Shown here piece after piece: positions 20,774 to 48,200 of a stretch of DNA of 64,000 bases (its first letter is position 1; the number at the start of each line of letters is the position of its first letter). The DNA lies in the NCBI GenBank assembly GCA_030765585.1, contig JAVCCJ010000121.1:7233-71232 (forward strand). Reading direction: 5' to 3'. Below the pieces are notes generated by a model. That model ran no database searches. It saw only the letters and a program-made list of their open reading frames with translations, and was not told the DNA's origin. The translations under genes were made by a program, and so were the position numbers. This stretch comes from Candidatus Zapsychrus exili (lineage in GTDB: Bacteria; Omnitrophota; Gorgyraeia; Zapsychrales; Zapsychraceae).

Positions 20774-20783
20774 AGGTAAAAAG

Positions 20784-21056: not shown

Positions 21057-21072
21057 AGAGTAAGGATAAAAA

Positions 21073-24000
21073 ATGTTTAGACGATTAAATTATATTCTGA
21101 GAAATAATTATTTTACAAGATCTTTAAAAAATATCGGTCAAGATATTGGCCAAGACAAAAGAATGCGTTCTTCAAAAGGGCAGATTGCTCTCTTACTTGT
21201 TTTGGTAATTGCAATTGCTCTTATTTTTTATGCAGTTTCTCTTAATTTAGGTAAAGTGTCTCAAACAAAAACAATGGTTACTATCGCCTCAAATGTTGCG
21301 ACTGGTTATTTGGCATCACAAATGGCAAGTTGGGGACAAGCAAAGGCAGATCAACTAGAAGGAAAGAGAAAGCATTGTGCGCTTACGGGTGTTGTTGCAG
21401 CGATAGTTGGTTTTGTTATCCTTATTATTGCAATAGTTTTGATGCCTGAATCAGCAGGCTTATCAGCAGGTTTAATAGAAGTATCAATCGGACTTGCTGT
21501 TGCTGCTATTGTTATTGAACTCGTATGGGTTAATCCTCAGATATCAAGTTTGTGGGATAGGATAATGGCAAATTCTTTGTCTCAAGAGTCTCAGTTTTCA
21601 GAAAGCTCAATACAAAAAGCATTGCAGAATGTTATTACTGATCAAGTTCAGGTGCCCGATCTCCATGATGATGATATGGACCAAGTATGGTGGGCAGATG
21701 CTCCTAATGGCTCATCGCCAGATATGATGAGCAGATATGCATATTATTATAAAACAAGGCTTAATAGGGTTGTTCCAAGAAATTGGACAGTGGTATCAGA
21801 ATTTCTTGAAGCTTTAGGTGATTTTATTTATTACAGGCCACCTGATATTGATCCAAACGATGATTGGGGGCTTATGGATTCTGAAAATGATTGTAATCCC
21901 TTATCAAATTCAGAATGTCAACCGTGTTGTGTTTCTGCGGATGCAAGAGATGCTGATCTTGATTGTAGTAGTTTAATAGCAACTTATGGAAGCGTTGAAG
22001 GCTGGTGTAGCGCACATAGTCCTTATTCGGGAGGATCTACAGAATATCCGTACATTTATAATCCGTATCCATTTTTTGAAAAGATAGATAATAGTCGTGA
22101 CTCTTTAAGAGAATTGATAGGTCGTGATGATGAGAATACAAAATATTATGCTGATTATGATGCTTTTCTTGGGACACAATTAGAGCATGGTATTCCTGAT
22201 CCTGATGCGTGGAACAATAATAATGATTTCCATATTGAAGACACTGTTGGGTTTTATAATAACGATAATAGAAAAGATGTTTTTTCTTTCTTTCATCAAA
22301 TAGCAGAAAATATAACTGATTGGAATTGGGGAGGCGGAGTTGATTTAAACGATCTTGCGCCTCGTGAGCAGTATGGCGCTGAAGAGGACCTTGTTTATTT
22401 AGAGCAATGTAATTGGTGTGATAGGAACTTTGTTACTCCTGCAGGAGATCCTCTTGGAAACTGTAGGCATCGTACGTCAGGACCAGGCGGTTTTGAATTA
22501 GGCATGAGTCAACTTGCTTTGTTAAATTCGCCTGATCATAATGCTAGTTATTGTGTAGAAGGAACAGAGGCTGCAGCAGAGGCGGGTAATCCTCTTTTAG
22601 CTGTAGATAAATTTACAGTTGCGGATGGAATTCAAGCGTCAAAGGACAGTTGTCCTGAAGCTGGACCAGGCGGTAGTACAGGTTTTTGGAAACCAGGATC
22701 GGATCAATTTTGTTCAAACAGTTTTCCTTATCCTGCAAATTGCGCTAAACATAGCTTGCCTTGTGATGTTTACGGAGTTTATACAAATTGCCCTACTTGT
22801 GAGGCTTCTCCTGATAAGACATTGTGGCGCGATGATATGATTGACGATTTTCTTTATAACTTTCAACATTTCTTTAAATGGGCGTCATTTTCGATGAATA
22901 TAGGGGTAGATATTATTAGAAATGATTTTGTTGGTTGGTATGATAGTTCAGCGGAAAAGTGGATAGATGAAACTTCTAATCCGGAGGATAATGATAACAT
23001 TCTTCTTGGCGTTAAAAATAATTTTACAGAAATGGCAAGGAGGCTTAAAAATTGGAAAAATAGCACAGAATATATTGGTAATGTTTGGTGTGTTCCTTCT
23101 AATGGCACAATACCGTTACCAACGGTTGTGCCACCTTATGTAAACCTTTTAACTCCCGAAGAAGAAGTTATTGATAATGCGGGAAATAGGGGAACCTTGG
23201 GAAATATTATTGCGTGTTTGAATTGGAACATTAGCGGCGGAAGCGGCATAGTAAATAAAATGAATAATTGTACGTCAGCTTGTCAAGTTTATACTACTAA
23301 CCCAGGAGACCCAGAAGACCCAAGTGATACTGTAACTGCTTATGCTGCAAACCAGGCATGTTATAATCTTCCGACCAGATCACTTTCAGGGATTAACTTG
23401 CAAGGACAATACCACTCAATTGGGTCAGCAGTACCAGGAGATACTTTAGACACGGCTTGTGCAGATTCTGACTTTTTGAGCAATCTTTCAGAAAGTGCTC
23501 ATCAGGGGGTTAATCAGACTGTAAAATTTCAAAAAAGGCGAGAGTTTCTTTCTTCCTTAGAAATTGGCTTGGACAATGCAATTGTTACATTTAATTATGC
23601 TGCAGAAGGATTTGCTGATTTCTTAGAAAGCGATGAAGTCGCGGCATTAAAAGAATTTAGAGCAGATTTCTTTAATGTTGATGACTTTACAGAAAACTCT
23701 CCTTATCAATTAATTTATGGATGGAAAGATGATGAATCAAAAGTAAAAGATCCGTTGTGGCATCTTGTTCGTGTTGATGCTCGTTTGCCGAAAAAGTGTG
23801 ATCAAGAAAATTCTTCCTTATGCGGCAATTGGCAATGGCCAGATATTGACGAGTATACTAAGGGGATTTTCGCAACAACACGTTGTTATGAGCTGAAGAA
23901 TCATACAGGTGGAGTTAAAATTCGCGTTACTAGATATGACGAAAGTCCAAAAACAGGTAATTTAATTTTTCCAAACGGCGTGCCAATTTGGGATTTTAAA

Positions 24001-24306
24001 TACAAGCGTTCTGGTTTAGACAACACAGAAAACATTCCAGCCCTTGAGGCTGCTTGTCTAGGAGCTAGTAATGATCTTCTTCCGCCTATTTTAGCTGAAA
24101 GTTCAATATATAAACCTGTTTATCAACAGGCCTTTATTCTAAATAAAGCTGATGAATATCCTGCTTGTTGGAACAAAGCGATGGATCATATTAAAATGGG
24201 AGTTATGACAGAAACATGTGCGCAGTATTTTTGGTTGGGACCCGACTATGGTGGTTCAATGAATTTAAAGTTTGTTCCATGCCCTGGGTCGAACGCAGTT
24301 CAGTAA
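21073..24306 (+). CDS. Giant (1,077 aa) TadG-like minor pilin / tip-adhesin candidate: prepilin-like N-terminus, second TM, then a Cys/Trp/Asn/Asp-rich extracellular domain
   Basis: ...MRSSKGQIALLLVLVIAIALIFYAV (G/QIALL). Remainder rich in C, W, N and D with many CxxC pairs. No enzymatic motif seen. Confidence 0.6.
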   Translation: MFRRLNYILRNNYFTRSLKNIGQDIGQDKRMRSSKGQIALLLVLVIAIALIFYAVSLNLGKVSQTKTMVTIASNVATGYLASQMASWGQAKADQLEGKRKHCALTGVVAAIVGFVILIIAIVLMPESAGLSAGLIEVSIGLAVAAIVIELVWVNPQISSLWDRIMANSLSQESQFSESSIQKALQNVITDQVQVPDLHDDDMDQVWWADAPNGSSPDMMSRYAYYYKTRLNRVVPRNWTVVSEFLEALGDFIYYRPPDIDPNDDWGLMDSENDCNPLSNSECQPCCVSADARDADLDCSSLIATYGSVEGWCSAHSPYSGGSTEYPYIYNPYPFFEKIDNSRDSLRELIGRDDENTKYYADYDAFLGTQLEHGIPDPDAWNNNNDFHIEDTVGFYNNDNRKDVFSFFHQIAENITDWNWGGGVDLNDLAPREQYGAEEDLVYLEQCNWCDRNFVTPAGDPLGNCRHRTSGPGGFELGMSQLALLNSPDHNASYCVEGTEAAAEAGNPLLAVDKFTVADGIQASKDSCPEAGPGGSTGFWKPGSDQFCSNSFPYPANCAKHSLPCDVYGVYTNCPTCEASPDKTLWRDDMIDDFLYNFQHFFKWASFSMNIGVDIIRNDFVGWYDSSAEKWIDETSNPEDNDNILLGVKNNFTEMARRLKNWKNSTEYIGNVWCVPSNGTIPLPTVVPPYVNLLTPEEEVIDNAGNRGTLGNIIACLNWNISGGSGIVNKMNNCTSACQVYTTNPGDPEDPSDTVTAYAANQACYNLPTRSLSGINLQGQYHSIGSAVPGDTLDTACADSDFLSNLSESAHQGVNQTVKFQKRREFLSSLEIGLDNAIVTFNYAAEGFADFLESDEVAALKEFRADFFNVDDFTENSPYQLIYGWKDDESKVKDPLWHLVRVDARLPKKCDQENSSLCGNWQWPDIDEYTKGIFATTRCYELKNHTGGVKIRVTRYDESPKTGNLIFPNGVPIWDFKYKRSGLDNTENIPALEAACLGASNDLLPPILAESSIYKPVYQQAFILNKADEYPACWNKAMDHIKMGVMTETCAQYFWLGPDYGGSMNLKFVPCPGSNAVQ

Positions 24307-24385
24307 TGCGAAAATTATTTTACGAGAAGGTTGCAGAATTAATAATGTGGCAGGGATTGCTTTTAATACACAAGGGAAATGAAAA

Positions 24386-24730
24386 ATGTTGAAATCATTA
24401 AAAAAACATAAGAAGCCAAAAGGACAATCTTTTTTAGAATATGTTCTGCTGATTGTTTTTATTATTGCTGCTTTATTGGTTTTTCAGAAATATATTTCTC
24501 GAGCAATATGGGGAAGATATAAGTCAGTAGGAGATGCGCTTGGCAGTGGTTTGATATACGATCCAGAGAAAACGTTAGAATGTGGGTATGATCATCTGTA
24601 TGGATCTGGTTGGTACAATGCTGCTTGTTACGACGAGAATGATTGTGCACAGTATTGTGCAGCTAAGAAGCAGGCACCGTGCGTTAGTTGCATAGGGGCT
24701 TGTTTCGCTGCAAAATGTAGTGAAAATTAA
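24386..24730 (+). CDS. Flp-like prepilin with a Cys-rich C-terminal knot
   Basis: KPKGQSFLEYVLLIVFIIAALLVF. C-terminus has 9 Cys (CAQYCAAKKQAPCVSCIGACFAAKC). Confidence 0.65.
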   Translation: MLKSLKKHKKPKGQSFLEYVLLIVFIIAALLVFQKYISRAIWGRYKSVGDALGSGLIYDPEKTLECGYDHLYGSGWYNAACYDENDCAQYCAAKKQAPCVSCIGACFAAKCSEN

Positions 24731-24990
24731 ATGTTTGATGTTGGAAAATTGATATGAATATGGTGATTCCGCATGAGTCATTATTTTGATAAAAATTAAA
24801 TAAAGATATTAGGTATTTTTTTTGTTGTGATAAAATAAATTAGTAGACAGTTCGTGGGAACACAAATTGTAGGCCAAAGGCCGTCTGCGAATTTATCCCA
24901 AGCGTTAGTCGAGGGATTTTAATTAAGAGATTTTGGTAGTTTTGCTTTGCAAAAAACCGGAATGATAAACTTACGGGAGAAGTTCATTTA

Positions 24991-25848
24991 ATGTTAGTTT
25001 TTGTATTATTTTTAATATTTTGTACTGCATGTATTTTTGGATATGCCATTGTACCGCATCTCTACAAACACGCCACTGTAATACAAGAGAAAAGAGAACA
25101 AAAGTATTCAATCCAGATGGAGCAGGTGCTTACTCGTGCAGAAGCAAGAAAGATGAGTCGGCTTTTTGTTTTTGCTCCACTTGTTTTATCTGCAGGTCTT
25201 TACTTTTTAGTACCTGCTGAGATAAGGATTTTTGCTGTTGCATTTGGCGTTGTTATTGGGCTTTTGATTCCTGGCATGTATGTTAAATCGATGGCTGATA
25301 GGGCAAGGCGTAAATTTCAATTTCAGCTTGTAGACGGGTTGATGATTATGTCTAGTTCTTTTAGAGGTGGTTTAAGTTTGATGCAGGCAATGGAGGCTGT
25401 TGTTGAGGAAATGCCTGATCCAATTAATAGAGAATTCGGAACAGTTTTAGGTGAAAACAAAATGGGTGTTTCTTTAGACGATGCTTTAAATCATCTTGAA
25501 AGGCGCATGCCTTCTGTCGCGCTTCGCCAGATGATCACTGCCGTTTTGCTTGCTCGTGAAACAGGTGGTAATTTGCCTGTTATTTTTACCCGTATTGCAA
25601 ATAATATTCGCGAAAACAGAAAGATTCAACAAAATATAGATACGTTGACCATTCAGGGTAAAATTCAGGGTGTAGTAATGACGCTTTTGCCTTTTGCTTT
25701 TGCTAGTATTGTTTTCTCGGCGAATAAACAGATATTTTTAAATATGTTTGAGTCTGAGTTAGGACGAATGATGTTAATTTATGCTGCTATCTCAAATATT
25801 ATTGGCGCATTTATGATTTGGAAAATTAGTAGTTTTAAGGACTTTTAA
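24991..25848 (+). CDS. tadB: Tad pilus inner-membrane platform protein TadB (T2SS-F family)
   Basis: Polytopic. GspF-like block FRGGLSLMQAMEAVVEEMPDPINREF...ALRQMITAVLLARETGGNLPVIF. Confidence 0.8.
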   Translation: MLVFVLFLIFCTACIFGYAIVPHLYKHATVIQEKREQKYSIQMEQVLTRAEARKMSRLFVFAPLVLSAGLYFLVPAEIRIFAVAFGVVIGLLIPGMYVKSMADRARRKFQFQLVDGLMIMSSSFRGGLSLMQAMEAVVEEMPDPINREFGTVLGENKMGVSLDDALNHLERRMPSVALRQMITAVLLARETGGNLPVIFTRIANNIRENRKIQQNIDTLTIQGKIQGVVMTLLPFAFASIVFSANKQIFLNMFESELGRMMLIYAAISNIIGAFMIWKISSFKDF

Positions 25849-25860
25849 TAAGAGGAAAAT

Positions 25861-26754
25861 ATGTTAGAACTAATTTTAGCCCTAGTGTTTACATTTGCTT
25901 ACCTTTCAGGGTTTTTCTTTATTTTGGCAGTTATCCCTATTCAATGGGATTATCGTCCGACTTTAAATGTTGCTGGTATTGGCGATGAGAAATCTCTTAG
26001 GCAAAAAAAGAAAAAGACACCATTTCATTTCTTAAGAAGTGTGGCTTTAATAAATAAGCCAATATGTCTTGGTGCATTAAGGGCAAGAATTGAAAAAGAT
26101 TTAGCAATAGCACACGTTAACATGACAGCAGAGGAGTTTCTTTTTATTAAGGAAGTTGGAATCTTTTTAATGCTTTTTCTTACATATCCAGTAGTTGCTT
26201 CTGATTTTGTTATGTTCTGGGGGATTATGTGTGTTGCGTTAGGATACATGATTCCTGAATTTTGGCTTAAAGGTAAAATTAAAACTTCTAAAGCCACAAT
26301 AATTAAAGAACTTCCTGATGCAATTGATTTGCTCGGACTTTGCGTTAATGCTGGACTTGATTTTATGCTTGCATTAAGATGGGTTGTTGAAAAGTCTCCG
26401 CCATCAGTTATGACCGACGAGCTAAACACAATATTGCAAGAAATTAGCGTTGGTAAGACGCGTAGGGATGCTATTAGAGATTTGTCTTACCGTTACCAAT
26501 TGCCTGATTTGTCTACTTTTGCTAGAACTTTAATCCAAGCAGATAAAATGGGAACTTCGGTTAGTGAAGCGCTGAATATGCTCTCAGAAGATATGCGTAT
26601 TGCGCGCTACAGACGAGGTGAACAGCTAGCATTAAAAGCCCCATTAAAACTTCTTGTGCCGCTTCTTTTCTTTATCTTTCCGGTTGTAGGTATTCTTGTT
26701 GCTGGACCGATATTGCTCGATTTTATCGAGAACAATCCTTTCGCTGCGCATTAA
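25861..26754 (+). CDS. tadC: Tad pilus inner-membrane platform protein TadC (T2SS-F family)
   Basis: ELPDAIDLLGLCVNAGLDFMLAL...TFARTLIQADKMGTSVSEAL is the GspF-domain signature. Confidence 0.8.
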   Translation: MLELILALVFTFAYLSGFFFILAVIPIQWDYRPTLNVAGIGDEKSLRQKKKKTPFHFLRSVALINKPICLGALRARIEKDLAIAHVNMTAEEFLFIKEVGIFLMLFLTYPVVASDFVMFWGIMCVALGYMIPEFWLKGKIKTSKATIIKELPDAIDLLGLCVNAGLDFMLALRWVVEKSPPSVMTDELNTILQEISVGKTRRDAIRDLSYRYQLPDLSTFARTLIQADKMGTSVSEALNMLSEDMRIARYRRGEQLALKAPLKLLVPLLFFIFPVVGILVAGPILLDFIENNPFAAH

Positions 26755-30254: not shown

Positions 30255-33200
30255 ATGAAATCAGCCGCGGAACAAAATAGAGAGCCAGAAGATGATAGAA
30301 AAGCCGACAGCTCAATTGGCAATATGAGCGAGAATACGGCTTTTACTCATCAACATTCTTATGTTCCTACCAATAGGACTTTCTTAAACTCTGAAGATTG
30401 TTCTGCTGATGCTCAAAATATTTCAAATACCCAACCACAAGAAGAACCAATTCCACATAAATCACGCTTTAAATCTTGGATTAAGACAGTTGCATTAATA
30501 ATAATATTGGTTTTTGTTCCTGAGCAAATTAGTTGGGCATTTAGCTATAATCCTCTTGTACTTTGGAAAGATAAGGCTACTGTTGCTTCACAGTATCTTG
30601 GTGATGGAAATACTATTGCAGCAGAGAACCAAATGACAGAAGAGCAAATAGTCTCTTTACGTGTGTCAGAAAGTGTTAGCCATTTTTTAAAACAACTTCA
30701 AAACAAAAATGCTCAACAAATACAATTACAACTTCCAAATCCACACAAATCAAAGCTAGTTAAGGATAATCAATATAATATATTAATTAATACTGATTTG
30801 GCTTTTAATGAGTCAAATATTGCTGAAATTGCAACTTGGTTAAGAGAACCTGCAATTCACCCATTAAATTGTGGCGTTTATGCTCTTAATGATATCCTTG
30901 CTAATTATGATGTTAAATTAAGTCTAGAAGAAATCTCAGTTATGTCTCTTTTAGTTGATTTAATCAACGATATCGTTCGCCCTGGCGAACCAAAGCTTAA
31001 AACATCTCTTTACGCGATAAACAAGATTACAGAAGCATACGGAATTAACTTAAAAGCAGCAAAGCTTGCACCAGCTGATATTTTTGATTTAGAGCCACCT
31101 TTTATCGCTAATTTTGATGATGAGCATTTTGTGACTGTTACAAAAGTAGACGATACAAGCGTTTATTACAATGATATAGGTCGCGCGTCATCAAGTTCAA
31201 GATTAGATTTCTTAGACCAAGTAACAGGTTTTGTTTTAGCTCCTGAGCTAGAAGCTCAAGATGATGTAAAATTTGAGTATGTCCCTGATGCAATGCAGGC
31301 ATTTATTTGGGGTTCAAAATGGCATGGTAATCTTGATAATCTTCCAGGATTGTACAGCTGGGGAGATGTTGCTATTGGAGCTGCTTTTCAAGTTGTTGGT
31401 CTTTTTACCGGTGGTCTTGCTAGTAGCGTATTAAGTTTAGGTGCAGGTAGTTTTCTAGGTTCTCTTACAACAGCTATTGCTTTAAGTGAGTGTTATGATG
31501 CAGAAACTGGTGCGGCAGATCAGGGTTGTTTAGATACAATGTTTGTTTTAAATATTGTAGGAACTTCAGCAATATCAGCCGGCAGTGGCGCATTAAATGC
31601 TGATAGCTTTGATTTAGGCGCTTTCGCAGGAGACTTTGCTAAAGGCGCTGTTGTTGGGCTTGGACAAGGGTTGATTATGCTTTATGTAGGTAAATTGCTT
31701 AATGATTTACTTGAAGATTGGGATGCGCCTGATGCTCTAAAACAAGCAATTATTGGCGCGGTTTCATCTGTTGTAGCAACAACTGCAATGGGCTTAGTTG
31801 TAGATGGCCTAGACGCTGCTCTTAAAGAAATGGGTGTCGGAGAAGGCGCTAAAGTTGATTTGTCTTTAAAGAGCGTATATGCCGGAGACACACAGGTAAA
31901 GGTAGAGCCCGAATGGGCAGTTTGGAAAGCAACGGCTATGGGTAACGTTTTATCCGGCTTAAACAAGGTTGTAACATTTATAGGAAAATATACTGGAATT
32001 TCATGGGCGTTAAATCAACTTAATAAAGGCTGGAACAAGCTAGTAAAGGGCATGATAGGCTCAAATTCAGGAGCTGCAAAAACTTTAACTGCTACAGGAA
32101 AAGCTTTTAACGGCATAAAAAAGGGAGTTAATTATGCGCTAAACGGAAAGTTTAGTCCAGTAACTTATGTAATCAAAGCTCTTGCGGTTATTCCAAGAAC
32201 TGTTAGAAATCTTATGTCTGAAGGTAAAAAGGTTTGGGGAGTAAAGCATCTAGTTTTTGCATTAGAACAACATAATTTTTTAAGACAAATGACAGTGTTG
32301 GCAGTTAGATACATTTTATCAGAAGGTAAAATTCTTGGAATTGATGATGGCAATAAAGAAAATAATGGAGATGATGGAGAAGACCGCGGAATAGCATTTG
32401 ATTCATTCCTTTCTCAAGCAATAGGCATGGGCGTTGGTATGTTTTATGATCATGTTTCTATTGGATTAGATAATCGTGATAATTTAACTAAAAGAACGGA
32501 AAATGAAATTGCACAAAAGAAAGCAGAGGCAGAAGGGTTAGATAAAAACGATCCAGAATATGGTGATTTTATACAGAACAATATTGTCTCAATGACAGGT
32601 ATGTCTTTAGAGGATATTTTCGCTAAACGAGCAGAGTTTGGTTTAAGCGAAAACAGTGATTTTGCTCAATACCAAGGAAAAAGAACTTCTGCTTTTATAG
32701 CAATACTTGGAAAGTCGGTAGCCTCAGTATTATTAGCTAAACATTATGATAAAAAGGAATGTGCAAGAGTAGATTGTAATGAAACTGAAAGACTTGGAGA
32801 AGACCCGAATAGAGATCGCATAGGCTTGCTTAAGTTCAGGGCAACGCAGTTTCTTATAGGCGGACTTATTGAGGGCGGAATTGCTATTTTAACTGAAAGT
32901 AATAGAAGGCCAGATGGTGCTGAGCTTACTCAAACAGATAAAAAAGTAGAGCTTGATAAAAAGATAATTAATAAATTAGCTAATAAAGATGCAGATAAAC
33001 TCGAGAATGCTTTAAATACAAGCATGATGTTAGTAAATGAAAAAGGAGAATTGATAGATAATCTTAATGCTACAGAGAAAACATCTAATGAAATGCTTCT
33101 AGCAGCAAAGAAAAAATATGAACAAGCTTATAGTGAAGGCGGCGGAGCAAATGGAGAAGGCATTGAGAAAGTTTTAGCAGCAGCAGGATTGTCAAAGAAA

Positions 33201-36200
33201 GAGTCAAAAGAATATTTGAAACAACGCGCGAAAGAATTAGATAAAACTAATGATGTTTCTAAGCTTTTCTTATTATTTAATGGCAACTTTGTAGCTAAAA
33301 CTATTCAATCGATGTATTCCGCTAATGGCAACAGTCCATATGGAATAGTTGGATATGATGATGGTGTTGCTGTTTATGATCAAAGAGGATTTGTAAGAGC
33401 TGATGAGGATGCATCGCCTACAGAAAAATTAATTTCAAGCATAGCTGCTCGTTCTTCCTATATTAATGAAATGGTTGGTATGTATGGAGGAATGACTCTT
33501 ACAAAGAGATTAATGGTAAGAGAGCAAAATGAAAAAATGGAAGCAGATATGCGCAGAACTAATGAAGTCTCATCAGCTGCTCCTATATCTGAAGAAGAGC
33601 TTGCGCGTCAAATAGGCGCTGCTCAGATGAGAGCAAATGTTAAAACATTAGATGTAATACATAATAGTAACAATTATTTCTTAGATGCGATCAATCAGTC
33701 CTTAGCAACAGCATTATTCTCACCTCAAGATAGCCCTATTTTACACGCACTTGATTCTTTAGCATTTGATTTTGTTGATGCATCAATAGAGCAACAAGCA
33801 CAGGCTGCCTGGGAAGATGAGAGTAAAAAACCAGATACAAATAAATTAGCATTTCTTCAAAACAAACGTCAAGAGCTTCGCGATGAGGTAGCAATGAATT
33901 CTGATGACAAGTTTGGTTATTCGCCATCTGATTCTGTAGATGTATCAATAGAACAACAAGCACAGGATGCTTGGGCAAAAGAGGGCAAAAAGCCAGATAC
34001 AAATAAACTAGAATTCCTTCAAAACAAACGCAAAGAGCTTCACGAAGAGGCAGCAATGAATTCTCCATGGTTAGGCTTGGGTATGGATTATAGATATCTT
34101 GCTAGCGAACAAATAGGCGAGGGAATAGATAGCAATAAAATTACTTATAAAATGAGTGAGAATTTAGTATTTAATTCAGGCAAGGGTATTTTGCTAGGAA
34201 CATCTCTTGAAAAGAAGGGTGATCTTTTAGAATATGGTTTAGAAAAGTTAAATGTTTATTATCAGGATGAAGTTGGTAAAGGAGATTATATTGGTGAAGG
34301 CTCTGATCGTGATTTTAGCGGAACAATAGTTAGAGATATTTCTGGCTTAAGCGAAATAGACAGAAGAGAATTAGGTTTTGATCCAGAAAAGATGAAAATT
34401 GCGACTGAAAATGATGGAGATAAAGAAATAGTTGCAGTAGGACTTGCACAAAAACTTAGACAAACAGATAGAAAAGAAGACGTATCTGCTCTTAATGAAG
34501 AGAAAAAGGGCAAAATCATTACTAAAATAGATGGTACAACACGTCTTGTTTTTGGTTATGAAGCAGAGCATTTAGCAGAACAAGGCAAGAAATATGATAT
34601 GACAGTTGATGTTGGTAAGTTTACTGTTAATGAAGAAACAGGCGACAGAATTCATTTATCAGCTCAGAGACAAGCTGCTCCTGATGCACAACTTTCAGAT
34701 AGTTGGGTAGTTACGCGACAAGATTTTAATGCAGCAACACCAAAAGATATAACAGCTACTACAATGTTTTTTGCTTCTCAGGGGGAAGTTATAGATGAGC
34801 AAGGCAATGTATTAGAACAGTATGTTGCTAGCATTAGTTCTGAAGATTGTGTTACAGGTTGCACAGATCCTAAAAAAACCTGGTATGTTAATCGTTCTCT
34901 TTTTGCAAAAGAAGGTGATAAAAAAATAAGTGATATGGATGATCTTGGTTTTGATACAAATCTTAAGACTTTTGCGAATAAAGATGTAAAAACAGAAATA
35001 GCAGCTCTTAAAAAAGATTATAAAAGAATTGATGATTCTACAGAAAAAGATGAGAACCGTTTAGCTGTAGTTAATACAATTATTGATCATGCAATTGAGG
35101 ATAAAGAGTCAAATCAAATCGCAAAAGAGCTTTATGGTTTCGCAAAGATGGTTGAAGAACATAAAGTAGCATCATCTCTTGAAATTGGAGCTTATACCAA
35201 TAATAAGGAAGGCTCTAACCAAGAAGGAGAAGAATTATATCTTGGAATAGCAAGATACAACACAGATGATAAGGGTAATGTAAAAGATACTTCAACAGTT
35301 CTTATTAGTGAACCTCAAATATATGATAAAAATGGCGCTGTTGCAACGACTAATTTTATTTATCAAACAGAACAAACAAGCGCTTTTAATGTGGGTGATT
35401 CTGCAGTTTATGGAAAAGTTGTTGATGGTAAAGAAACACTTGTTAGTGCAGAAGAAATAGATACATATAAAGATAAAAAAGGAATAAAGGGAGATGTTAA
35501 ATCAATTGCTGTTGTTCGTCAGGTAGCAAAAGGCGATATAGATCTTTCTAGCGCAGTTGAAATGGCAAAAGGCTTTGATAAAGATGGAGTTGATAAGTTT
35601 GGAGATACGCCAGAGAATTTTAATGGCAAAGATTATATGAGTTTTGTTGCTGCTTCAACAGAAGATGGCCAGACAGCTGTTTTAGAAGCAAGCAAATCTA
35701 AACTAGTTCAAGGATATTCTGAGATTAAAAGTTCAGTTAAAGTTCATTATGATCATGATTCTTATAAATTAGAAGCAAAAGCCAAAAAAGATTTAGATAG
35801 TGCAGCAGCAACATTAAATGATAACGATCAAAAAAATATCATTATAAATGGAAGAACAGATTCGTCAGGTACAAATCAATACAATGTGAAGTTAAGTTTA
35901 AATCGTGCGCTTGCAGCAAAAGATTATTTAATGGAGCAAGGTATATCAGAAGATAGAATAATAATTCGCGCTCTTGGAGAAGGAGAAGCTGATCAAAGTA
36001 TTGCTGAAAGCATCCGTTCTGATAAAGAGATTGGTCGTAAAGATAGAAATAGTTCTTTTGAGATAGTAGAGAAATCGCCTCTGGGAGATTCTAAGATTAC
36101 TTTTAGGGTAGATAAAGAAGGCTTTGTTAAGAGAGCTAGCACAAATTTCTATACCGCAGGGTTGGATAACGAGGGTAGCAGTATTGTTTATGATTTAGCT

Positions 36201-39200
36201 CCTAAAGCAAGTCTATTAGCTGATGCTCTTATACTTTTAGCAGCAGATGTTGCAGATGCTTTAGGACCTGAAGAAAATAAAATTCAAGAAATTGTGACTT
36301 CAAACGCTACAAGCGCTAAGGCAGCACAATTAGATGGAGCATTAGTTGCTATCGTCCCTGATATAAGAGCATACGAGCTTGGTAAAAACGATCTTCTTCA
36401 CATAGTAGATGGAGAGATAATTGCGCCTAACGAAATTCGTTTTGATGATTATGCTCCAGATCCTACATCTACTCCTAAAAGAGATTCAAAAGGTAATGTT
36501 GTTGCTGGTTCGTTTATAAAAGATACTGTTGCAACTAAACAAGGCGATGGAACATATGCATATTCAAGCGCAGATGGAAAAGTTGGTAAAGCAGCTTCGT
36601 TAACCGTAGATCAGTTAGTTGTAACTAAGTTTGGAGTAGTTGGTGTTGATGAAGCAGCAATTGTATCAGATAAGCCATTAATATTAGGGAACAATAGCCA
36701 ATGGTTAGCATCTTCTTCTGATGCAACACTTGAAGTTGCTTTTGGTAGCAAAACAACACAAGCGCTTGATAGCAAAGGTAATATTGTCGGGCCAGTAGAA
36801 GAAGTTAATTATAACGGCGGATATCGCATTGATGAGAGTAAGGCTATTGTTTTAAGAAGCAAGGTTGGAGAAGGCGCATTATTAGGTTCTATTTATATAA
36901 ATAATGAAGGGGCTCCAAAGGTTCTTGATAAAGAAGCTTTTGAAGAGGAGTCTTTAGAAGACAATAAAAAATATGTTAGCGCAACTACACAATCAGAAAC
37001 TGTTGGATCGTTAAGTGTTGCAGGAATTTCAACAGAATCTAAATGGACCGCAACTCCTGTTGTCGACGGGAAAATTAATAAATATGCAGCTGATGAAGAT
37101 GGTGTTTTAGAGTCTGCTTTAGTTGGAAACAGAATAGTTTCTCTTCATGGAAATGCTAAAGAAAACAATATGACATTTAAGGATATGAAAGATAAGGCAA
37201 ACGTAGGCTTTATTTCTAAGAGTGGACGCATGATTCTTACTCCTAATAATAATAATATTTCTGGTGGATGGTCTAAAGATGCAAATGATCAATTAAGTTT
37301 TAATGTAGGGATAAAAGATACTAAGAAAATGAATGGTAGTGAAGAGGGCAAAGGCACAGCATTAGGACTACAGCAAGAGAATGTTCTTGTTTACAACAAA
37401 GGAATTGGCAATATTCTCTATCAAGGTTCAGAGCAGACCAGCGTTGATCCTGTAACAGGTCTTGTAGGAGCAAATCGTTTTGTAACAATGAACTTAACAG
37501 GTGATATGGGCGTAAATCAAGGAACTGTTTTAGCTTCTAAGGTTGATTTAGCACAGGGAAATATTGAAGGACAGGTAAGAAACCATAAAGATTTAGATGC
37601 TCCGAGCATATTTAGCGCTAAATTAAATACTTTTGATATCAAGGATAGTGAGATTATTTTAAAGGTTTCACAAGAACTCGGTGATGTTTCGCAATTACCG
37701 GTTGCTGCTGATTTTGCTTACTCTAAAGAAGGAAAGGGTGAAGCACCAGTACAAACCCCTGCAAATTTAGCCGCTTTAAAAGGTGTTGAAAATAATCCAA
37801 ATGTTTTAATGCTTGAGGTAAGTAAAGAAGCCGGCCAAGATCTTACAAAAGTCTTAGGAACACCAACAAGTAGCGTTCTTAATTTCGCATTTTCTACAGA
37901 TGGACTTAAATTTAATCCAAAGGCAGAAGGTTCTGTTTATTCTAATTTTGATCGTGTTTCTGTATTGTCAGGAGTTGAAGCCCCTACTGTGATACTTAAA
38001 AGAGAAGCAACGCCGACAGAATCAAATTCAACCCCAGCTATTCAATTTATAGCAGATGCTAATAATAATGTTAAGATGCAGTGGAAAGGTATTTGGAATA
38101 TACAAAGAGATAGCGCATATACAAATCATTCAACTAAGTGGATGAGCGCCGATGGAAAATCAGAAGCTCCACTAGTGCTTAATACTACAATAATAGGAGA
38201 AGAAATAACTGCAAGTGCTGGATGGAATGATACTGCAGTATGGAATTGGGCTGCAGGCGCACCTAAAATGCGGGGAACAATAACAGATAAAGATGGTAAT
38301 TCTGTAAGTAGCTTAGGAATACAAAGAGTAGATGGCGCAGGTGCAGGTTGGACGATACAAGCTCGTGGTAGCAAAGATGGAAGTACTCTTGTTGCACCAA
38401 ATCACGTTAATGTTGAAGAAAATGGTTATGTTGATCCAGATGCTAAAAAAGATGTAGATAAAACAGTATCTAATAAATTTTTCAAATTACCTCAAGCTCA
38501 AAGCTATGATGTTTATAAGGATGGAAGCAGAGAAGATGGTTTAGTCGAAGTTAGATTGAACCAAGGCTTCCCAGAAGGCGTTGAAACACCAGCAGATTTT
38601 GAGATTAAAAGCGGTCAAAGCATTAATTTACTTGTTCAAGACCATGATGGATTATCTTCTGTATCAACAACTGAGAATATGGTTGGTACTGATGTAAGGA
38701 AGATGATTTATCATGCAAAAGCTCCAGAACAAGAAAAGGCTGCTGTTGAGAAAGAAGTATCTGAGCAAGAGACAGATTTGAATAAGTTTTCTATGCCAAT
38801 AGAAAATTTTGTTGCTAAACAAGACAATACTCGTTTAGCCAAGGTTAATATTCCAGTAATAATTGATAATTTTATCACACCAGAGCCTAATGTAGATAAA
38901 ATCACAGTTCAAGAATGGAGAGTAGAACGTGCTCCAGAGACTATGGTAGTAGAAAATCCTTACAGCGTATTAACTTTGGATGGTAGTCGAGCAATAGAGC
39001 GCGATGTATGGGGCAGTAAAGTAGGTACCATACCTATTAAAGAAACAGTTTCTTTTGAGCCAGGAGATTATCAATCATTTGGCGATGTCAATAAAACTGT
39101 ACTTATTACAAAGACTGCAGCGACTTCGTACAATATTGATTATTCTAATTCAGATAAAATTACTGCAACAAAATCAAGTGAAGGTCTTAATTTCGTTGAT

Positions 39201-42200
39201 TATAGCGGAGAAATGTCTTTTATAAAAGGAAGAACCTCTAAAGAAATAGAACAGATAAAAGAAAATGATATAACAGAGTGGTTTCCTAATGCAACAGAAG
39301 GCAAAGAAAAAGTTAGCGTACAAATGGACTCAGATGCGATTACGTCAGAGGCGATGCAAATTAAGCGTTATGATCCAAAAACAGGCGCTCATGTTACTGA
39401 CAGATATCTTGCAGGCATGACAGCAATAAAGGGAAATGACGGAATAATTAGATCACAATTTACTACAGAAGCTAGTTTGTATAATGCTGATACTAAAGAA
39501 ATTGGTAATGCAGGTAATTTATTATATGATGCTGCAGCATCTTTCTTGCTAGATTCTGTTGAAACAGATAAAGGTAAAAAGGCAGTATTTAAATTTGTTC
39601 CAGAAGGGCAAGATCCAACTGTTTTTACTGCCACATCTAAGGGAGGCATAGAAACAGTTAATACGATCTATACAGACCCTGCCACGATTAAAGAGGCTAA
39701 TGAGGCAAATTCATCAGGTGCTTTATTGCCAGAAGCTATAGCGCAAACTTTAGATCCTAACAATACTGGTTCAATTCAAAGAGTTTATCAATATCAGGGC
39801 AAGAAGCTTGTTAATGAATATTTTGCTGTTACGAGAGCTAAAGAAGACAGTAGTAAGGTAGAAAAATTTTATGTAGACGGTAAATATGCTAATCCAAATA
39901 ATGCAAATGAATTAAAATCTCTTATTGCAAGCGAATTAAATCTTGATTTAAAAGAAACCAAGACTTCAACATTACAAGATTTTTCGTATTCTAAAACAAT
40001 AGAAGATGATGCCGAGGTAGTGTATGTTTCTCCTCAAGGAAAAGTTTACTTAAGGATGGTAACAGGCAGAACTATTATAGAAACACCAAATAGTTATTCT
40101 AGTTCATCAACTTCTACTAGCGAGCAACATGATGTTTTTGCCTATGATCTTGTAACAGGCGATGTTGAAGAAGTAGATGTAGAGAAGACTTTTGTAGATG
40201 TTGTTACTGATAAAGATGGTGCTAAGAGATATGCACTTAAATATCTTGTTCCTGAGAGTAGAACACGATATTCGATAGGATTGCCTATTTCGTATAAGCC
40301 TGCTGGCGTACAAGGCATAGAATTTAAAGATGAAGATGGAAAAGAAATTTGGGCTGATATCAATTATATAAAATCAGGCCAATTAAATGGCGTAGGAGAA
40401 GAAAAACAGTTTGTCGCTGTAAGTATTCAAGATGCAGGATGGTCTAAAAACAAAAGAAACAGAATAATTGATTTAAGCACCGGTCGTGAAATTACAAGAG
40501 AAGGTTTTATTGAAACACCAGAAGGCGGAAAATGGGACTTAAATAGATATAAAGGCAAAATAGTTGAAATGGTTAAGGCTAAAGGTTTCTGGGGAGACGT
40601 AGGAGATGTTGCTTGGAATGGTCTTAGAGGAGAAGGAAAAGAAACTTATGTGAAGAATATGTTGATGGATTGGGGCATGTCTTATGCTTCAGCCGGGGCA
40701 TTAGATGTTTCTAACCCAAGTGTTGCAGGAGTTGTAACAACCGCTCTTATGTTTACTGGCGTAGGTTCAGGACTTGGGCTTATAGGTAAGGGTGCTAAAG
40801 CAGGTTCTACAGCTGCTAGGGTTTATTCGATATCGCGAGCAGCTTTAAAGACAGGCCTTATATTCGGAGGAATAGATACCGCAGCATATGTTGGAATAGG
40901 AGCGCTTACTGGACAAGATTTAAACTTTTCAGATGGACTTGCAGCTTTTGCAGGTGGGGTTAAGATGGGCGCTACTATGACTCTTGGTATAACTGGATTA
41001 GGAGCTGTCAGCGGAAGAATCGCTAATTCTATTAATGCTGTTAATGGTGTTGCTGGCACTGGTAAAGGATTTAAATTTGTTAGTAAGACATATAAAGGTT
41101 TTGGAAAAATGGCAGAATGGAAGCAAGCAGCAATTTTAAATGGTTCATCTGGTGCAGCAGTTAATGTTACGCGCGGTATGGTTGCAAATTATTATGAAAA
41201 TGGTGGAGAATTAGATTATAGCTTGAGATCTTTTGCAATAGATGCAACAGCTGGAGCTATTATTAGCGTAGCATTAGGCGGCGTTGGATCAAAAGTGATG
41301 AAAGGATCGTTTAACACTAAACAATTGCTTGGTAACAATATGATTCATTATGGTTTAGTTGGTTTAGGTGGCGAAACTGTTTCAACAGGAATATTTAGCG
41401 ACAAGGAAATGACATGGACAAGAGCAGCAGGAAGTTTTGCTATGGGCGCTATTGGTGGATTAGTCTTTAGATCGACATGGATTCCAGAGATGATGGGTGT
41501 TAAACCTGCTGAAATTATAGGTGAAACAGCTAAAGTAACAGAAGGAGTAACAGAAGGAGCTACAAGTTTATTTAGAAATATTAAGAATCCATTGAAGCTT
41601 ACAAAAGCTGCTCAAGGTGTAGAATCTGGCGCAACCGTTCTTAATTTCTCTAAATTACGAACAATAGGAACTTTAACTGGTTTAGGTGTAGGCGCAGGCG
41701 CAGGTATGGCAGCTATGGATGCTAGAGTTCATGCTAAACAAGATGCAAGAAAAGCGGGATTCAAAGAAGGAACTAAAGCATTTGATTCTTTTGTTTCAAA
41801 GGAAACTAGTAATAATTTTAGGAGTTGGAAAACAGCAAAATACATGGGTGCAGGCGCACTAGCTGCAAACGTAATGTTCTTTGGAAGAAGAGCGATACAG
41901 ATGAAAGGCAGAGCAAAACTTTTAGGCACACATAGCAATAAGCGCATTACGCTTCCTCTTATTGCTGATGAACCTCATTTAATTGCAAGCCTATCTTTAT
42001 TAGGAGCTGCGGATTTTGCAATGATCATGCCAGCTTGGGGTGCACTAGATTCAGTTATATATACAGGATTAACCGGTGGAAATCTAGAAGAAGGTTTTTA
42101 TCATTCGTTCCAGCAAAAAGATGTTGATGGAAACGATTTGGGTGTTTTTAGCAATTTAGCTGTTCATTCTATTGGTGGTGCAAAATTAGGTGCTCGCTTA

Positions 42201-45200
42201 GGACCTGTTTTAGGTATTGCTCAAATGCCTCTTTCAGCTTTAGGTAAAAAATCAGCGTTAGCACCAAAGAGTATTTCAAAATTTTCTGCCAATAAATCTA
42301 GCGGTTTGAGTATTTCAAAAATCTTAAGTAGTCCAACTGCGCATAGTATGCCAGTAACTGTAGCTCAATTAGCTACTGTTGAAGTCTTAGCTGAAAAAGT
42401 ATTAGAAAATACATATTTTAAAACAGCTGCAGAAAATAAAGCTGATACTCTTTATAACTCGCATTTAGAAGAAACAAAGATAATGACTGGCGCATATCCT
42501 ACAACAACAAAGGCGCAGTTTAGAGAAGAATATGCTAAGAATAAAATAAAAGAAGATGCGGGACAAATAGCTTTTGCTTCACTTTTATTTAAGCCAAGTT
42601 CGATGCCTGGAGCAGAACCAGAAACAGGTGGTAAAGGAAATAAAGGATCTACAGCAGAGGCAAAAATAGAAACACCTCCCAACAAACCTTCTGACAACGC
42701 ACTCTCTGCGGATGCACAAATTAAATTATCAACTAAGCAAACAAATATAGATCAAGCACCAGTTGCTAAGCCAGAGAAATCGATGCTTTCTCGCATGACT
42801 ACCGCTGTTGATTATATCGGTTCTAAGTTCAAAGGTCATAATAATAACATACTAAGACAAAAAATAGGAACGCAATCTTTAGAACAGAATGTTATTATCA
42901 CAAGTTCTTCTAAACAATATGTTAAGGCGGCAAAAGAAGCGAGACGCAGAGGCACAGAATCAAAAGATAAAGAATACAGAGATTTAGATGAAATAGATCA
43001 AGTATTTAATATGTCAATGGATAGCTTAAGGGAGAGCATTGAAGCAGACGGAAGAACAAAATTTAAAGTAAAACCGAAACAATTAGCTCTTGTGTATTCA
43101 GTTATAGAACATGCAATTAAGGGAGAGAAGCTGTTGGCAATAGAGCCTGTTAGTGGCGGTAAAACAGTTTTAACAGCAGCTATTGTTGATTCTTTAGCTA
43201 AAAAAGGCAAAACAGTTGTTGTTATTGTACCGTCAGGTAAACTTGTAGATCAATATATGAATAGTGCTCTTTTCGAGAATGGCAGATTTACAACTCCTCA
43301 GACTCGCAATAATGGCAAAGATGCTGTTCCTGAGGCTTTAAAAAAGGGAATGGTTTATTTTATGACTGATGCTCAAGCTAAAGATTTTGTTCTTCATAAG
43401 AATAAAACAGGAGAAAACTTTTTTAAAGATGCACAAGGATTTTATGATGAAGCTCATAATCTTTTTACTATGTCAGACAAAATTATAGGCGGCGGTTCAG
43501 AGCGAGCCGCAAAGATTGTCGCAGAGAATTCTTCTCAAGCAAAGAGACTGCAAAGACAATATGATACAGATACGGAACTTGCTAGAATAACTGTTGATTT
43601 GGTTAGAGAAGTTGGCGGAGAAGTTGAATATTTAGTTGAGAATAAGAATTCAGACAGAATGTCACATCAATTTAAAGAGCAGGCAACTTATAGAAACGGT
43701 AAGAATGTTTGGGCTGTTAAAGACGCTAATGGAAAATTAAGCATTGTTAAGAAAGGTACAGCAGGAGCAGAGATTTTAAGACCAAAAGATATTGTTTTAG
43801 AGAGATTTAATAAGTCTGTTAAAGAGAAGAAATTAATAAGATTTAAATCAGATCATTCAAAAGCTTTGCTCGAAGATTTTGCAGGTTTAGCTAAGTCAGC
43901 TTTTCAAGAAGCTAGAATAAGGACAAAAAATAAACAGGGAAATCTAGAATCTGCTCCTTTAGATGCTTATACAGGCGAAGCACGTTGGGGTGAAATTTTT
44001 AGCGATCCTACAGGAAGAAATACAAAGGCAAGGGCTCTTGTTGCATTAGAAAGAGTACTTGCTCTTGAACGAGAAGGAAATGTTAATCTAGAATCGTATA
44101 TTAAAAGCGCCATTAATAGTACAGAACATAAAGCTCGTGGTGCTGATTTCTTAGATATGTTTGATAATGTGACTTTATTGACTGGTACTGCTGGTGAGGT
44201 AAAAGGTATGGCCAAAATGAAGAATATTAATATGGTTCAGTTTAGACCAGAGTATACATTAAAAGACATAGGACCTGAGAATGTGACTTTTGAGACTTCA
44301 GGAAAGTCTAAGATCGATATGATAGTAGACATTATTAGAGATGAAATTAATTTAGCTAAGAAAGCAGGCGATAATTTTGTATTGATTACTACTAATTCAA
44401 GGGAAGCAGGCGTATTGGGCGCTAGAAAAGCGCGTCAAACACAAAACCTTAAAGATAAGGGTTACAAAGTAGAGTATGTTTCTGATGCAAAATTAGCTGA
44501 GAGAATAAAAGAGATTAATAATTCTAATGCTAAAGAAAAGATTGTTATTGTTACCCAGGTAATTGAAGGCATTTCGGTTGAAGCTAAGGGTTCTGGTGTT
44601 GTGATGGAGACAGCTGTGCTCTCTGCGGCAGATACTACGCAAGCCCTAGCTCGTATGAACACATTTGCAGAGGCAAAGGATTCTTCGAGAACAAAGGCTA
44701 AAGCTAAGGTTAAATTACATATAGATGATCACTTAATCTTAACGGCAGAAAAACAAAAAATACTTGAAGCCCAGGGAAAACTTGATCAAGCAAGAAAAAC
44801 TAATAGCTCTGATGCAATAAAGAATGCCGAAGCCAATCTAGATTTAATTTGGAGAGAGATGATGCACTCTCTAACAGAATTTAAAACAAATCAAGGCCTA
44901 GCCACTATAAGTACAACGGTTGTAGAAGGGGTTAAAAGTAAAGTAGCAAAAGAGTCGGTACAACAGCAATTGAGATCAACAACACATGGCATTTTATCTG
45001 ATATAAGACAGGAAGCTCATAAAGACATTGCATTAGATTATATGAACAAAACAGGCAAAACATCTGCACAAATATCTTTGTCTGATAATAAAGGATTTGA
45101 AATATTTTCATCAAGCAAAGAAGGTGACGAGATATCAGTTGATAATATAAATAATGTTGGGCTTGTAGCAACAGAAGAAATAGAATTAATCCACGGAGCA

Positions 45201-48200
45201 AAATTAAAAGCTGGGCAAACATTAGATTATGAAACTGGATTTGTCTATGAAGCGCCACAAAATGAATTTGATATAAAAGATTTTAGTCAAATAAAGAGCG
45301 AGTATCTTCCTGTTGGCGTTATTAGTATAACAAGAGAAGATGTAAATAATCCTAAAGCTAACTATAATCCTGTTGTTAATACAGTTGTAAATGGAAAAAA
45401 GGCAGCAGCAATTGAGCTTTCTGATTTGGGTAAAAATACCTTGTTAGATAGACAAATAGTATATGCAGAAAACAGTGATGGCAAGATTGATCAAGTAGCT
45501 TATAGGGTTAAGCCAATCATCTCCAATGTAACAGTAGGAGCAGCTTTAAGTGCAATTAATATTAATGATGATTCTTATGAAATAGATAATGATGGATTTG
45601 CTATTGTTCCTATAGAAACATTTAATAAAGCTTTTAGCAAAGAAAATGCTCTAGATAATAGCGTATTTGATGGCATAGGCTTTAAGTTTGCGCAAGATAT
45701 AACAATACATGAAGGTTTTAAAGAAAAACGTTCAGACGCGATTACTGGTAGAACTAGAAAATCAAAGAATAAAGTTGCGAAAGATGCATTAAAACTATCA
45801 ATTCAAAAAACAGTAGAAACTCCAGAAATAGCTATTGCATTGCCTGACGGTCAAGGTGGCACAAAAACACAAAGAATTAAAATGGATGATTTAAGAGAAC
45901 TGCAAACTCGTATGGCAAGTTCTAAATCACCTGACTCAGACGTTAATCTTTATTTTGCTGATTATGATTCAGAAGAGTCTAAGGCAAAAACTAATAAAGC
46001 ATTAAACAATTTAGTTAGATTTTCAAATCCAACAACACAAGATGACAAAGATTGGGTTGCAAGTCTAAATACAGAAGAAGTGGTTCATTATGATACAGCA
46101 GCTAAATCATTAAAAACACGCGGCATATCTCCAGTTGAATTTGCTATGCGTTTTCAACATCAAATGGGTGGAAAGAATTTTGGCGGACATACTGGTTCTG
46201 GCGGTCAAGATGCATTAGGCAATAAGAGGGATCAACAAAACGTATATGTTAATGAATCAGCTACACATATTTTTGATTACTATCAAGACATAGAACGAGA
46301 CAAAGGATTTGAAGCTGCTAGTGATACTGAAAAGATGATGGAAACAGTTCTTCATGAGCAAATAGGTTTTGCTAATAGAGATTTTTCTCATTATCAAAAC
46401 GTTGAGGTTCGTCGTGTATGGTTAAAGGCAACTGAAGCTGTGAAGCAAATGAAAGAAAACAATGTAGATACAGTAGAGCTTCAATTAGTTGATGGATCAG
46501 GTTATGAAATTTACGAAGCTATTAAAGAAAACGGTAAGACAATTGGTGCGCAACCTATAAAATTAGTTGCACAAAATTCGGACGTTAAATTACGTCATTT
46601 AAACACAACACTAGCAAAAGGCGAAACACTAGATTATAAGGCATCATCTAAAACAGCATCATTGGATACTGGAAGCATTAAATATAAAAGTGTCGATAAT
46701 CAAGAAGACAAAATAGTATCAAAATTAAAAGTAGGACAAGATATTGTAAATATTACAGATCCTAATTTAAATGGACATACAAAACTTGCTCAAAGAGCAG
46801 TAGCTGATGTTGAGGATGCTGCTAGTATTTTAAACAAGATTGATTTATCTTTAAATGGAACAAGAAAAGAATTTGCGTTAGACAGACATATAAAGACTAT
46901 TGAGCAGTTAAGAAATACAAACAATGTATTTATTTCTAAAAATGCTGGCGCTATGAGTACTGATGACGGAAGAATGATTGTTGGAAGACTTGATAACAAC
47001 AATAATAGACTTGTATTAAATTCAGAGGCTAATGGAGAAATGGCTGATATTTATTTAAGAGGACAGAAAATAGTTGAGAACGTTCCTTTAAGAGTAGCTG
47101 CCATTATTAGTGAAGTAGATAGAAAACATGATGCAGGATTTGAAGTATACAAAGCTAAAAATGATGCACCAGCACAATCTAAAGCATCTGACAACGCATT
47201 AACTGCTGATACATTCCACCCTGCAAACATCACAACAAGAAAACAAATTCAAGGTATGATGCGCGATGGTGTTGATCAAGCACTTATGACATTAAGAGCT
47301 GGTGGATATGATTCTAAAGCTAAAATAATGAATTTTACAAAAGCTAATTTACCTGATAGCTTCAACAAACGTGTTAAAGATTTTGCAATGCGCGCTCGCG
47401 TTCGTGCAACAACAGCAAGAGAAAGAGCTCAAAAGGATACATTTGGTTCTGTAATTCATGCTTCTTCAGGTCGTGTTAGTACATTAGAATGGGGACTTCA
47501 CGAAGCAGGATATAAAACAGACGAAGCAATGGTTGCAAAAATAGCTGATATCGTTGCAGGCGACCCACGTAGAGTAGAAGGTGATATTGCAGTTTATGAT
47601 TTTAGTGATGTTAAAGGCACTACAAGATTAGACAATTATGAACTCCATGTAGATACAACTCGTAATTTTGATGATAAATCAATGCTTTCAATATTTGCAG
47701 ACGCTCCACAAGGTCAAACAATTGCATGGTTAGGTGAAAATATTGCTGTTGTAAATACAGATATATCAGTTGGTGGCGAAAGCGAACTTGCACGCAGCTG
47801 GTCAAAGATAGAGAAAAAATTAGGAAATCAAAATTTTGATGAGCAATTAGCAATGGTAATGCAATTTGATATTATCGATCTTAATAAGTTAGTTGCTTTA
47901 GCTGTTGAAGATGCTAATACAGAAGAAGCCATACTTGCTCGCGCTAAAGGTTTAAGTGTTGATGCTCCAATTTATGTAGCTGTTATGCGTGACGAATGGG
48001 TATTCTTTGCAGTTGTAGATGGCAAGCTTGTAGGCGAGCCACAAAAAGCAGAAGATATTTCTAACGGACTTGTGTTAATGTCTAAGGAAAGCATTCCAGG
48101 ACATGTTGTAGCTAAGTTTAGCGAAAAATATGTTGTTGCTCAATCTGTTCTTAATCCAGAAACTAGCATACCTACAGCGCTTGGAAAAGGCCAGTGGGCA

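Follow-up and report, generated by a model that had tools for sequence, protein, structure and literature searches.

The 64,000-nucleotide stretch of contig JAVCCJ010000121.1 analyzed here (the window), from a metagenome-assembled genome (MAG) of Candidatus Zapsychrus exili, an uncultured bacterium of the phylum Omnitrophota, contains a giant open reading frame (ORF), and the protein it encodes carries an internal OmpA-like peptidoglycan-binding module. Residues 1829–1940 of this protein form a complete domain of the OmpA-C/Pal type, with approximately 1,830 residues ahead of it and approximately 8,000 behind. Its resemblance to characterized domains makes non-covalent binding of the module to the peptidoglycan peptide stem very probable, and we lean towards the reading that the module tethers the giant protein in this way to the organism's own peptidoglycan in the periplasm. 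We infer the periplasmic location, the binding, and the cell's own wall as the ligand from what is known of the family.

The original prediction, made from the sequence alone, had placed an OmpA-like peptidoglycan-anchoring module at positions 35740–36070, equivalent to residues 1829–1939, and this agreed with the limits of residues 1829–1940 found here. The peptide NGRTDSSGTNQYNVKLSLNRALAAKDYLMEQGISEDRI corresponded to residues 1865–1902 of the ORF at 30255–60032 on the forward strand. The proposed search with the OmpA hidden Markov model (HMM) could have refuted the prediction by giving no match; instead, PF00691 (OmpA) scored 64.7 bits (E 1.1e-17) when 5,000 residues were queried and 70.8 bits (E 1.3e-19) when 200 were, against a Pfam gathering cut-off of 27.2 bits. 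A scan of the N-terminal 2,000 amino acids against NCBIfam matched 20 models, 19 of which were OmpA-like families on the stretch of the module; YiaD was the top model (E 3.7e-19), followed in the leading group by Bordetella OmpA, PA1041, and Pal, and the MotY and long TssL models also matched. All of the OmpA-like matches scored under the whole-protein cut-offs, as expected because the module is a lone domain. The best MotB-type match was weak (LafU, E 3.7e-4). The proposed match to an OmpA_C/MotB consensus was thus borne out for the OmpA family but not for MotB, the affinity being with Pal, OmpA, and YiaD. A sequence search of the Protein Data Bank (PDB) with the module ranked Pal proteins best (E 5.5e-11), and then PorE, OmpA, OprF, RmpM, MotY, and YfiB. 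When residues 1401–2400 were run as a filter-only HMMER query against 1.84 billion representative proteins, 15,187 matched at E≤1e-3, a number indicating that the similarity of the module is far above chance. In the best 150 of these 15,187 matches, the top-scoring stretch always lay inside residues 1734–1971 and nearly always on residues 1829–1940, and none of the 150 proteins exceeded 1,750 residues. With a local OmpA HMM applied to all six frames, the module was the sole OmpA-like domain of the window.

Structure prediction agreed with the assignment to an OmpA-like peptidoglycan-binding fold. A first AlphaFold model of the module from a four-sequence alignment had a predicted local distance difference test (pLDDT) score of 66.5, and an AlphaFold2 model from a 52-sequence alignment reached 87.1 with the beta-alpha-beta-alpha-beta-beta order expected for the family; the loop ahead of the last strand was longer in the module and was modelled with lower confidence. 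In a Foldseek comparison with the PDB, the top 50 matches were all OmpA-like domains from peptidoglycan-associated or envelope-machine proteins, including PorE of the type IX secretion system (T9SS), TagL of the type VI secretion system (T6SS), a chain of the outer-membrane complex of the Legionella Dot type IV secretion system (T4SS), and an LPHT-ring chain. The target-normalized TM-score of the model was 0.91 with Acinetobacter baumannii Pal and 0.90 with Escherichia coli Pal, and the Foldseek superpositions, among them that with OprF, had root-mean-square deviations (rmsd) of 1.5–1.8 Å. Against A. baumannii OmpA bound to a pentapeptide containing diaminopimelate (DAP), the target-normalized TM-score was 0.85 and the rmsd 1.7 Å. 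In A. baumannii OmpA, Asp271 and Arg286 contact DAP (PMC12108004). The Asp and Arg that the original prediction had regarded as conserved contact residues were indeed found at the equivalent positions, D1869 and R1884, spaced 15 residues apart in a TD..G...YN..LS..RA motif. In the alignment with Pal, D1869 corresponds to the Asp of HADERG and R1884 to the second Arg of GERRA. Among 300 homologous domains, the position of D1869 was Asp in 95% and that of R1884 was Arg in 98%; N1877 (96%), L1880 (95%), G1872, G1896, and G1908 were likewise kept. In the 52-sequence alignment D1869 was invariant, and N1877, L1880, R1884, A1885, and R1931 were nearly invariant. The homologues were chosen by similarity to the query, which inflates this agreement somewhat, and the positions concerned are the known signature sites of the family.

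To place the module within the protein family, relatives were searched for with residues 1–1400, which leave the module out. This search found 16 relatives, each with peptidase C39 as its only Pfam domain; 11 of the 16 carried a source name, which was Omnitrophota or Omnitrophica in all except one labelled Elusimicrobia. A further 80 loci came from metagenomes, which were scanned with an alignment built on the N-terminal module. Counted from where the N-terminal match begins, the ORF stayed open over 1,950 residues or more in 39 related loci and over 3,580 or more, up to the end of the available DNA, in 28 of these. BLAST comparison with the relatives showed that residues 1–570 were conserved throughout, that a weak block at approximately 1000–1170 was kept in five, and that the second hydrophobic cluster, at approximately 3400–4180, was kept in six or more, with almost no conservation in the remainder between residues 570 and approximately 3400. 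The module therefore lies in a hypervariable stretch between two conserved membrane clusters.

To our knowledge, every OmpA-like domain characterized so far works on the outer side of the cytoplasmic membrane and holds peptidoglycan without a covalent bond; therefore, the simplest reading is that residues 520–3490 are a periplasmic loop. MotB, TagL, DotK, and PorE tether envelope machines to the wall through a domain of this type. In the mechanism that we propose, the loop would lie between two membrane-embedded clusters of a multi-pass protein, the OmpA-like module would fasten the giant protein to the sacculus of its own cell in the manner of these four proteins, the ATPase/helicase-like domains would remain cytoplasmic, and the M23 and SLT domains would cut peptidoglycan on the outer side. 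An excess of Lys and Arg on the N-terminal side of the N-terminal anchor suggested an N-in orientation, and approximately seven candidate segments, an odd number, lie between the OmpA side and the helicase side, which fits an outside OmpA module and inside ATPases. The M23 and SLT domains, which are directed at the wall and have their catalytic motifs, share the polypeptide with the module. A secretin is encoded nearby together with RcpC, indicating an outer membrane and a periplasm and hence a diderm organism. Peptidoglycan synthesis was reported to be intact across 176 complete Omnitrophota genomes (2026 complete-genome preprint).

Several observations weigh against tethering to the own wall by way of a periplasmic loop. 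Residue 1867 is Arg where 80% of homologues have His before the TD motif, and the C-terminal NRR motif reads DRN in the module. The segment counts of cluster 1 (four or five) and of cluster 3 (approximately 18, several of them marginal) are ambiguous, so that the parity may come out either way; segment counts from the Kyte-Doolittle and an approximate biological hydrophobicity scale were therefore rejected as a basis for the topology. The literature on Omnitrophota giant proteins describes topology predictions for these proteins as unreliable even with dedicated predictors. The local OmpA HMM gave 110 bits for the module of the window and 80–90 bits for generic OmpA genes. In the 84 related loci, of which 39 carry an ORF that reaches the equivalent position, it matched nothing in any frame, the relatives being checked over about the first 3,700 residues only. 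Pfam scans of three long relatives likewise found only C39. The absence of the module from the 84 loci means that it is not essential to the core function of the family; among the relatives sampled, it is lineage-specific. No second sequence of the module was found, either. A word-indexed homologue search with the module and its flanks returned three generic OmpA proteins only, and with the module alone none; a scan of a genome collection with the module region gave a single unrelated acidobacterial OmpA gene, and a scan of metagenome contigs gave none.

The same unconserved position can be read in another way. The module may grip the peptidoglycan of another bacterium, either prey or host, with the variable region exported or exposed on the surface and the M23 and SLT domains digesting the prey sacculus. 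In the literature, Omnitrophota are inferred to be predatory or host-dependent, Tad systems are associated with predation, and the surfaces of target cells are suggested as the place where giant proteins act; a part that differs among relatives is also what would be expected of a target-recognition region, and lytic M23 and SLT domains are present in the same protein. However, membrane clusters flank the region, so that cleavage and passage through the outer membrane would be needed, and there was no evidence of either. In NCBIfam, the SLT domain comes closest to a lytic transglycosylase of flagellar assembly, an enzyme acting on the cell's own wall, and known OmpA-like domains likewise bind the peptidoglycan of their own cell. 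The only cultured relative, moreover, preys on archaea, which lack peptidoglycan, according to the literature. We consider attachment to a prey wall unlikely.

Still less probable, in our judgement, is that the module is a recently captured or decaying passenger that has no role in peptidoglycan binding and either lies on the cytoplasmic side or has another ligand. It was unique among the 84 related loci, its flanks had no detectable homologues, and its small departures from the consensus, Arg in place of His at 1867 and DRN in place of NRR, would suit decay. On the other hand, the most conserved positions of the family were all intact and the fold was predicted with high confidence, and the gene, at 36% GC, has a reading frame of 9,925 codons without a stop. 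The G+C content of the module (0.318, the 8th percentile) agreed with that of the AT-rich gene around it (0.36), which argues against a fresh import. Composition gave no signature of a foreign origin, both GC and GC at third codon positions (GC3) of the module being inside the range of the gene. The best-scoring homologues were mostly multi-OmpA proteins of Bacteroidota at approximately 30–36% identity, which is too distant to name a donor. That an ordinary fragment of an ompA-family gene was misassembled into the giant ORF, or that the gene call is an artefact, is hardly credible: the contig comes from a MAG, no independent contig with the module was found, and there is a probable frameshift near 59.9 kb, but the frame is unbroken across both junctions with thousands of open codons on either side, the GC and GC3 of the module are ordinary for the gene, and 11 neighbouring proteins have identical records on a single 111,550-bp NCBI contig of the Candidatus Zapsychrus exili MAG.

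With tethering to the own peptidoglycan as the preferred reading, we compared the module and the giant protein with known systems. Pal and the periplasmic domain of OmpA/OprF share with the module the Pfam family, the fold (target-normalized TM-score 0.82–0.91), and the Asp, Arg, Asn, and Arg of the pocket. Unlike Pal, the module has neither a lipobox nor a lipoprotein signal, has no TolB context (no TolB-type match was found among the ORFs scanned), and is internal, starting at residue 1829; the Pal equivalog models gave 44–58 bits against cut-offs of 125–261, indicating that the module is not Pal proper. Unlike OmpA proper, the giant protein contains no beta-barrel, and OmpA_membrane, the family of the eight-stranded barrel, had no Pfam match anywhere in it at E≤1. 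MotB/PomB and MotY of the flagellum, TagL and long TssL of the T6SS, DotK of the Dot/Icm T4SS, and PorE of the T9SS are similar to the module in that an OmpA-like domain fixes a machine to the wall, and the setting is also similar, the giant gene following the operon of a Tad machine. These anchors are small separate proteins or C-terminal extensions, whereas here the domain is one module of a polypeptide of approximately 10,000 residues. A MotB/PomB stator subunit, in which a single N-terminal membrane helix precedes the domain, was rejected because the architecture differs and because no MotA/ExbB-type partner gene was found, MotA_ExbB having no match among the 20 neighbouring ORFs scanned. 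YiaD-type lipoproteins combine a glycine zipper with an OmpA-like domain, and the giant protein also has glycine-rich hydrophobic segments; however, the module scored 69 bits against the YiaD equivalog cut-off of 175, there is no lipoprotein signal, and the glycine-rich clusters are more than 1,300 residues from the module.

Omnitrophota giant proteins have been described as having an N-terminal C39 domain, many transmembrane segments, helicase-type domains, poor conservation, and Tad or type II secretion system (T2SS) neighbours (Seymour 2023; West-Roberts 2023; 2026 preprint). The protein of the window shares with them C39 next to a membrane anchor, hydrophobic segments, a helicase-type ATPase, poor conservation, and adjacency to Tad genes, and, judged by these sequence features, it is a member of the already described C39-type Omnitrophota giant proteins. 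At 9,925 amino acids or more it is smaller than the published examples of more than 30,000 amino acids. A divergent SecA_DEAD domain characterizes the published class; in the protein of the window, Pfam matched DEAD/ResIII but not SecA_DEAD, and a motif in a second ATPase-like region resembles SecA by eye. The main texts of the three papers mention no OmpA-like module in such proteins.

The domain family is thus well known and the class of giant protein has been described before; what is new is the internal position of the module, its uniqueness among the relatives sampled, and its use as a topology marker. Omnitrophota giant proteins rank among the largest proteins predicted so far, and the literature openly treats both what they do and how they lie in the membrane as unresolved. 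An OmpA-like module inside the variable stretch is a testable hint as to which side of the membrane this stretch faces, it suggests that at least one Omnitrophota giant protein is fixed to the cell wall, and a fragment of 120 residues is an easy experimental handle. Since the type of module is ordinary and the relatives do not share it, it does not account for the family in general. A wider proposal, which we put forward as speculation and think improbable, is that the module marks the hypervariable stretch of approximately 3,000 residues in C39-type giants as periplasmic, and that the protein would be a single-polypeptide, wall-anchored, trans-envelope scaffold of the Tad-type apparatus coupling cytoplasmic ATPases to periplasmic M23 and SLT domains, with a captured Pal-like domain as its stator in this lineage.

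Table 1. Coordinates in the window of the giant ORF, the features of its product, and the upstream pilus operon
Feature	Position	Strand	Basis or remark
Tad/Flp pilus operon upstream of the giant gene	8223..26754	+	RcpC/CpaB, secretin-TonB_C, TadZ-TadA fusion, unknown ORFs, TadB, TadC
Giant ORF, 9,925 codons, carrying the module	30255..60032	+	Open reading frame
N-terminal membrane anchor, residues 76–96	30480..30542	+	K/R on N-terminal side; kept in all relatives
Peptidase C39 domain, residues 205–328	30867..31238	+	Pfam; Cys of LNCGV and His of EHFV invariant
Glycine-rich hydrophobic cluster 1, residues 369–517	31359..31805	+	4–5 candidate membrane segments
Stretch between hydrophobic clusters 1 and 2, residues 520–3490	31812..40724	+	Essentially unconserved; contains the OmpA module
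OmpA-like (PF00691) peptidoglycan-binding module, residues 1829–1940	35739..36074	+	HMM and homologue alignments, predicted fold
D1869 codon, counterpart of the DAP-contacting Asp of the family	35859..35861	+	Alignments
R1884 codon, counterpart of the DAP-contacting Arg of the family	35904..35906	+	Alignments
R1931 codon, at the position of the first, nearly invariant Arg in the C-terminal NRR motif	36045..36047	+	52-sequence alignment
Glycine-rich hydrophobic cluster 2, residues 3493–3927	40731..42035	+	About 7 candidate segments; kept in six or more relatives
DEAD/ResIII helicase-type ATPase domain, residues 4270–4406	43062..43472	+	Pfam; presumed cytoplasmic
Second ATPase-like region, residues 6327–6476	49233..49682	+	Walker A (AAGKT) and LDEADDLLLLETT
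Peptidase M23 domain, residues 9468–9571	58656..58967	+	Pfam/NCBIfam; HxxxD and HxH motifs
SLT lytic transglycosylase domain, residues 9624–9717	59124..59405	+	ES, GLMQI, and AYNRG motifs

The features of the giant protein and its surroundings are listed in Table 1. The G+C content was 35% in the window and 36% in the gene, and because stop codons are frequent in non-coding DNA of low G+C content, a frame of this length cannot have arisen by chance. The N-terminal part of approximately 570 residues (30255–31960, forward strand) was the only part kept in all of the approximately 100 relatives (loci L002 and L004–L086), and comprises the anchor, the C39 domain, and the first part of the glycine-rich cluster, in which a Cys...Cys loop is conserved. 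The invariance of the C39 Cys and His was observed in a 12-sequence alignment of the protein of the window with 11 relatives. Across the relatives, the unconserved stretch ahead of the second hydrophobic cluster measured from approximately 1,500 to 2,900 residues. In the second ATPase-like region, a weak DEAD match was obtained with Pfam near residue 6308 (E 0.18), and LDEADDLLLLETT, with an LDEADDLLL motif at 6471, looks by eye like motif II of SecA plus the residues that follow it; PDB sequence searches with both helicase-like regions gave nothing significant. Cluster 3, the large hydrophobic region, occupies residues 7586–8983. Within its hydrophobic segments, at residues 7626–7729 (53130–53441, forward strand), the motifs HEIGH and NLLPIPAFDG stand approximately 100 residues apart and resemble both signatures of site-2 (M50) intramembrane metalloproteases; the Pfam M50 match was below threshold (E 0.059), and a PDB search by sequence with this region gave nothing significant.

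At the end of the giant ORF, the last 40 codons or so look like out-of-frame AT-rich sequence, and a second open frame of 1,364 codons runs from 59909 on the forward strand past the end of the window at 64000, its first 96 codons containing no ATG. The giant ORF probably carries on in another frame beyond 59909. Either the change of frame near 59.9 kb is an assembly error or a real shift, with a protein of more than approximately 11,250 amino acids, or the downstream piece is a separate large gene starting from TTG at 59918. If the frame does change there, the M23 and SLT domains would lie inside the protein instead of at its C-terminus. The downstream piece (59909–64000) gave no Pfam match.

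The arrangement of a Tad operon followed by the giant gene was kept in the relatives, and TadB/C-like ORFs lay directly upstream in 40 of the 49 loci with at least 4 kb of upstream DNA. In the window, the Tad secretin (9201–11087, forward strand) contains Secretin and T2SS-T3SS_pil_N domains and a C-terminal TonB_C domain, and is labelled by NCBI as a TonB family protein. The pilus ATPase (11115–13274, forward strand) is fused to an N-terminal ParA/MinD-type (TadZ-like) domain, and further upstream a second T2SSE-type ATPase (2711–4114, forward strand) has an N-terminal PilZ domain. Exact look-ups of the TadZ-TadA fusion and of the giant protein returned no record. The 2.2 kb at 28011–30254, which separate the giant gene from a divergent nuclease gene, held no ORF of 100 amino acids or more and gave no Rfam or tRNA matches. 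This stretch is rich in repeats: a 73-nt direct repeat at 28245 and 28655 (85% identical), a 66-nt direct repeat at 28828 and 29474, three copies of TTAATGTCCAATCTGA, a 44-nt inverted repeat at 29066 and 29270, and several palindromes of the GGGTCAGACCC type. The nuclease gene (27141–28010, reverse strand), which lies between TadC and the giant gene, encodes a DUF1016_N domain and a staphylococcal-nuclease domain; in relatives, its position is occupied by genes of the toxin-antitoxin type (HipA, PemK).

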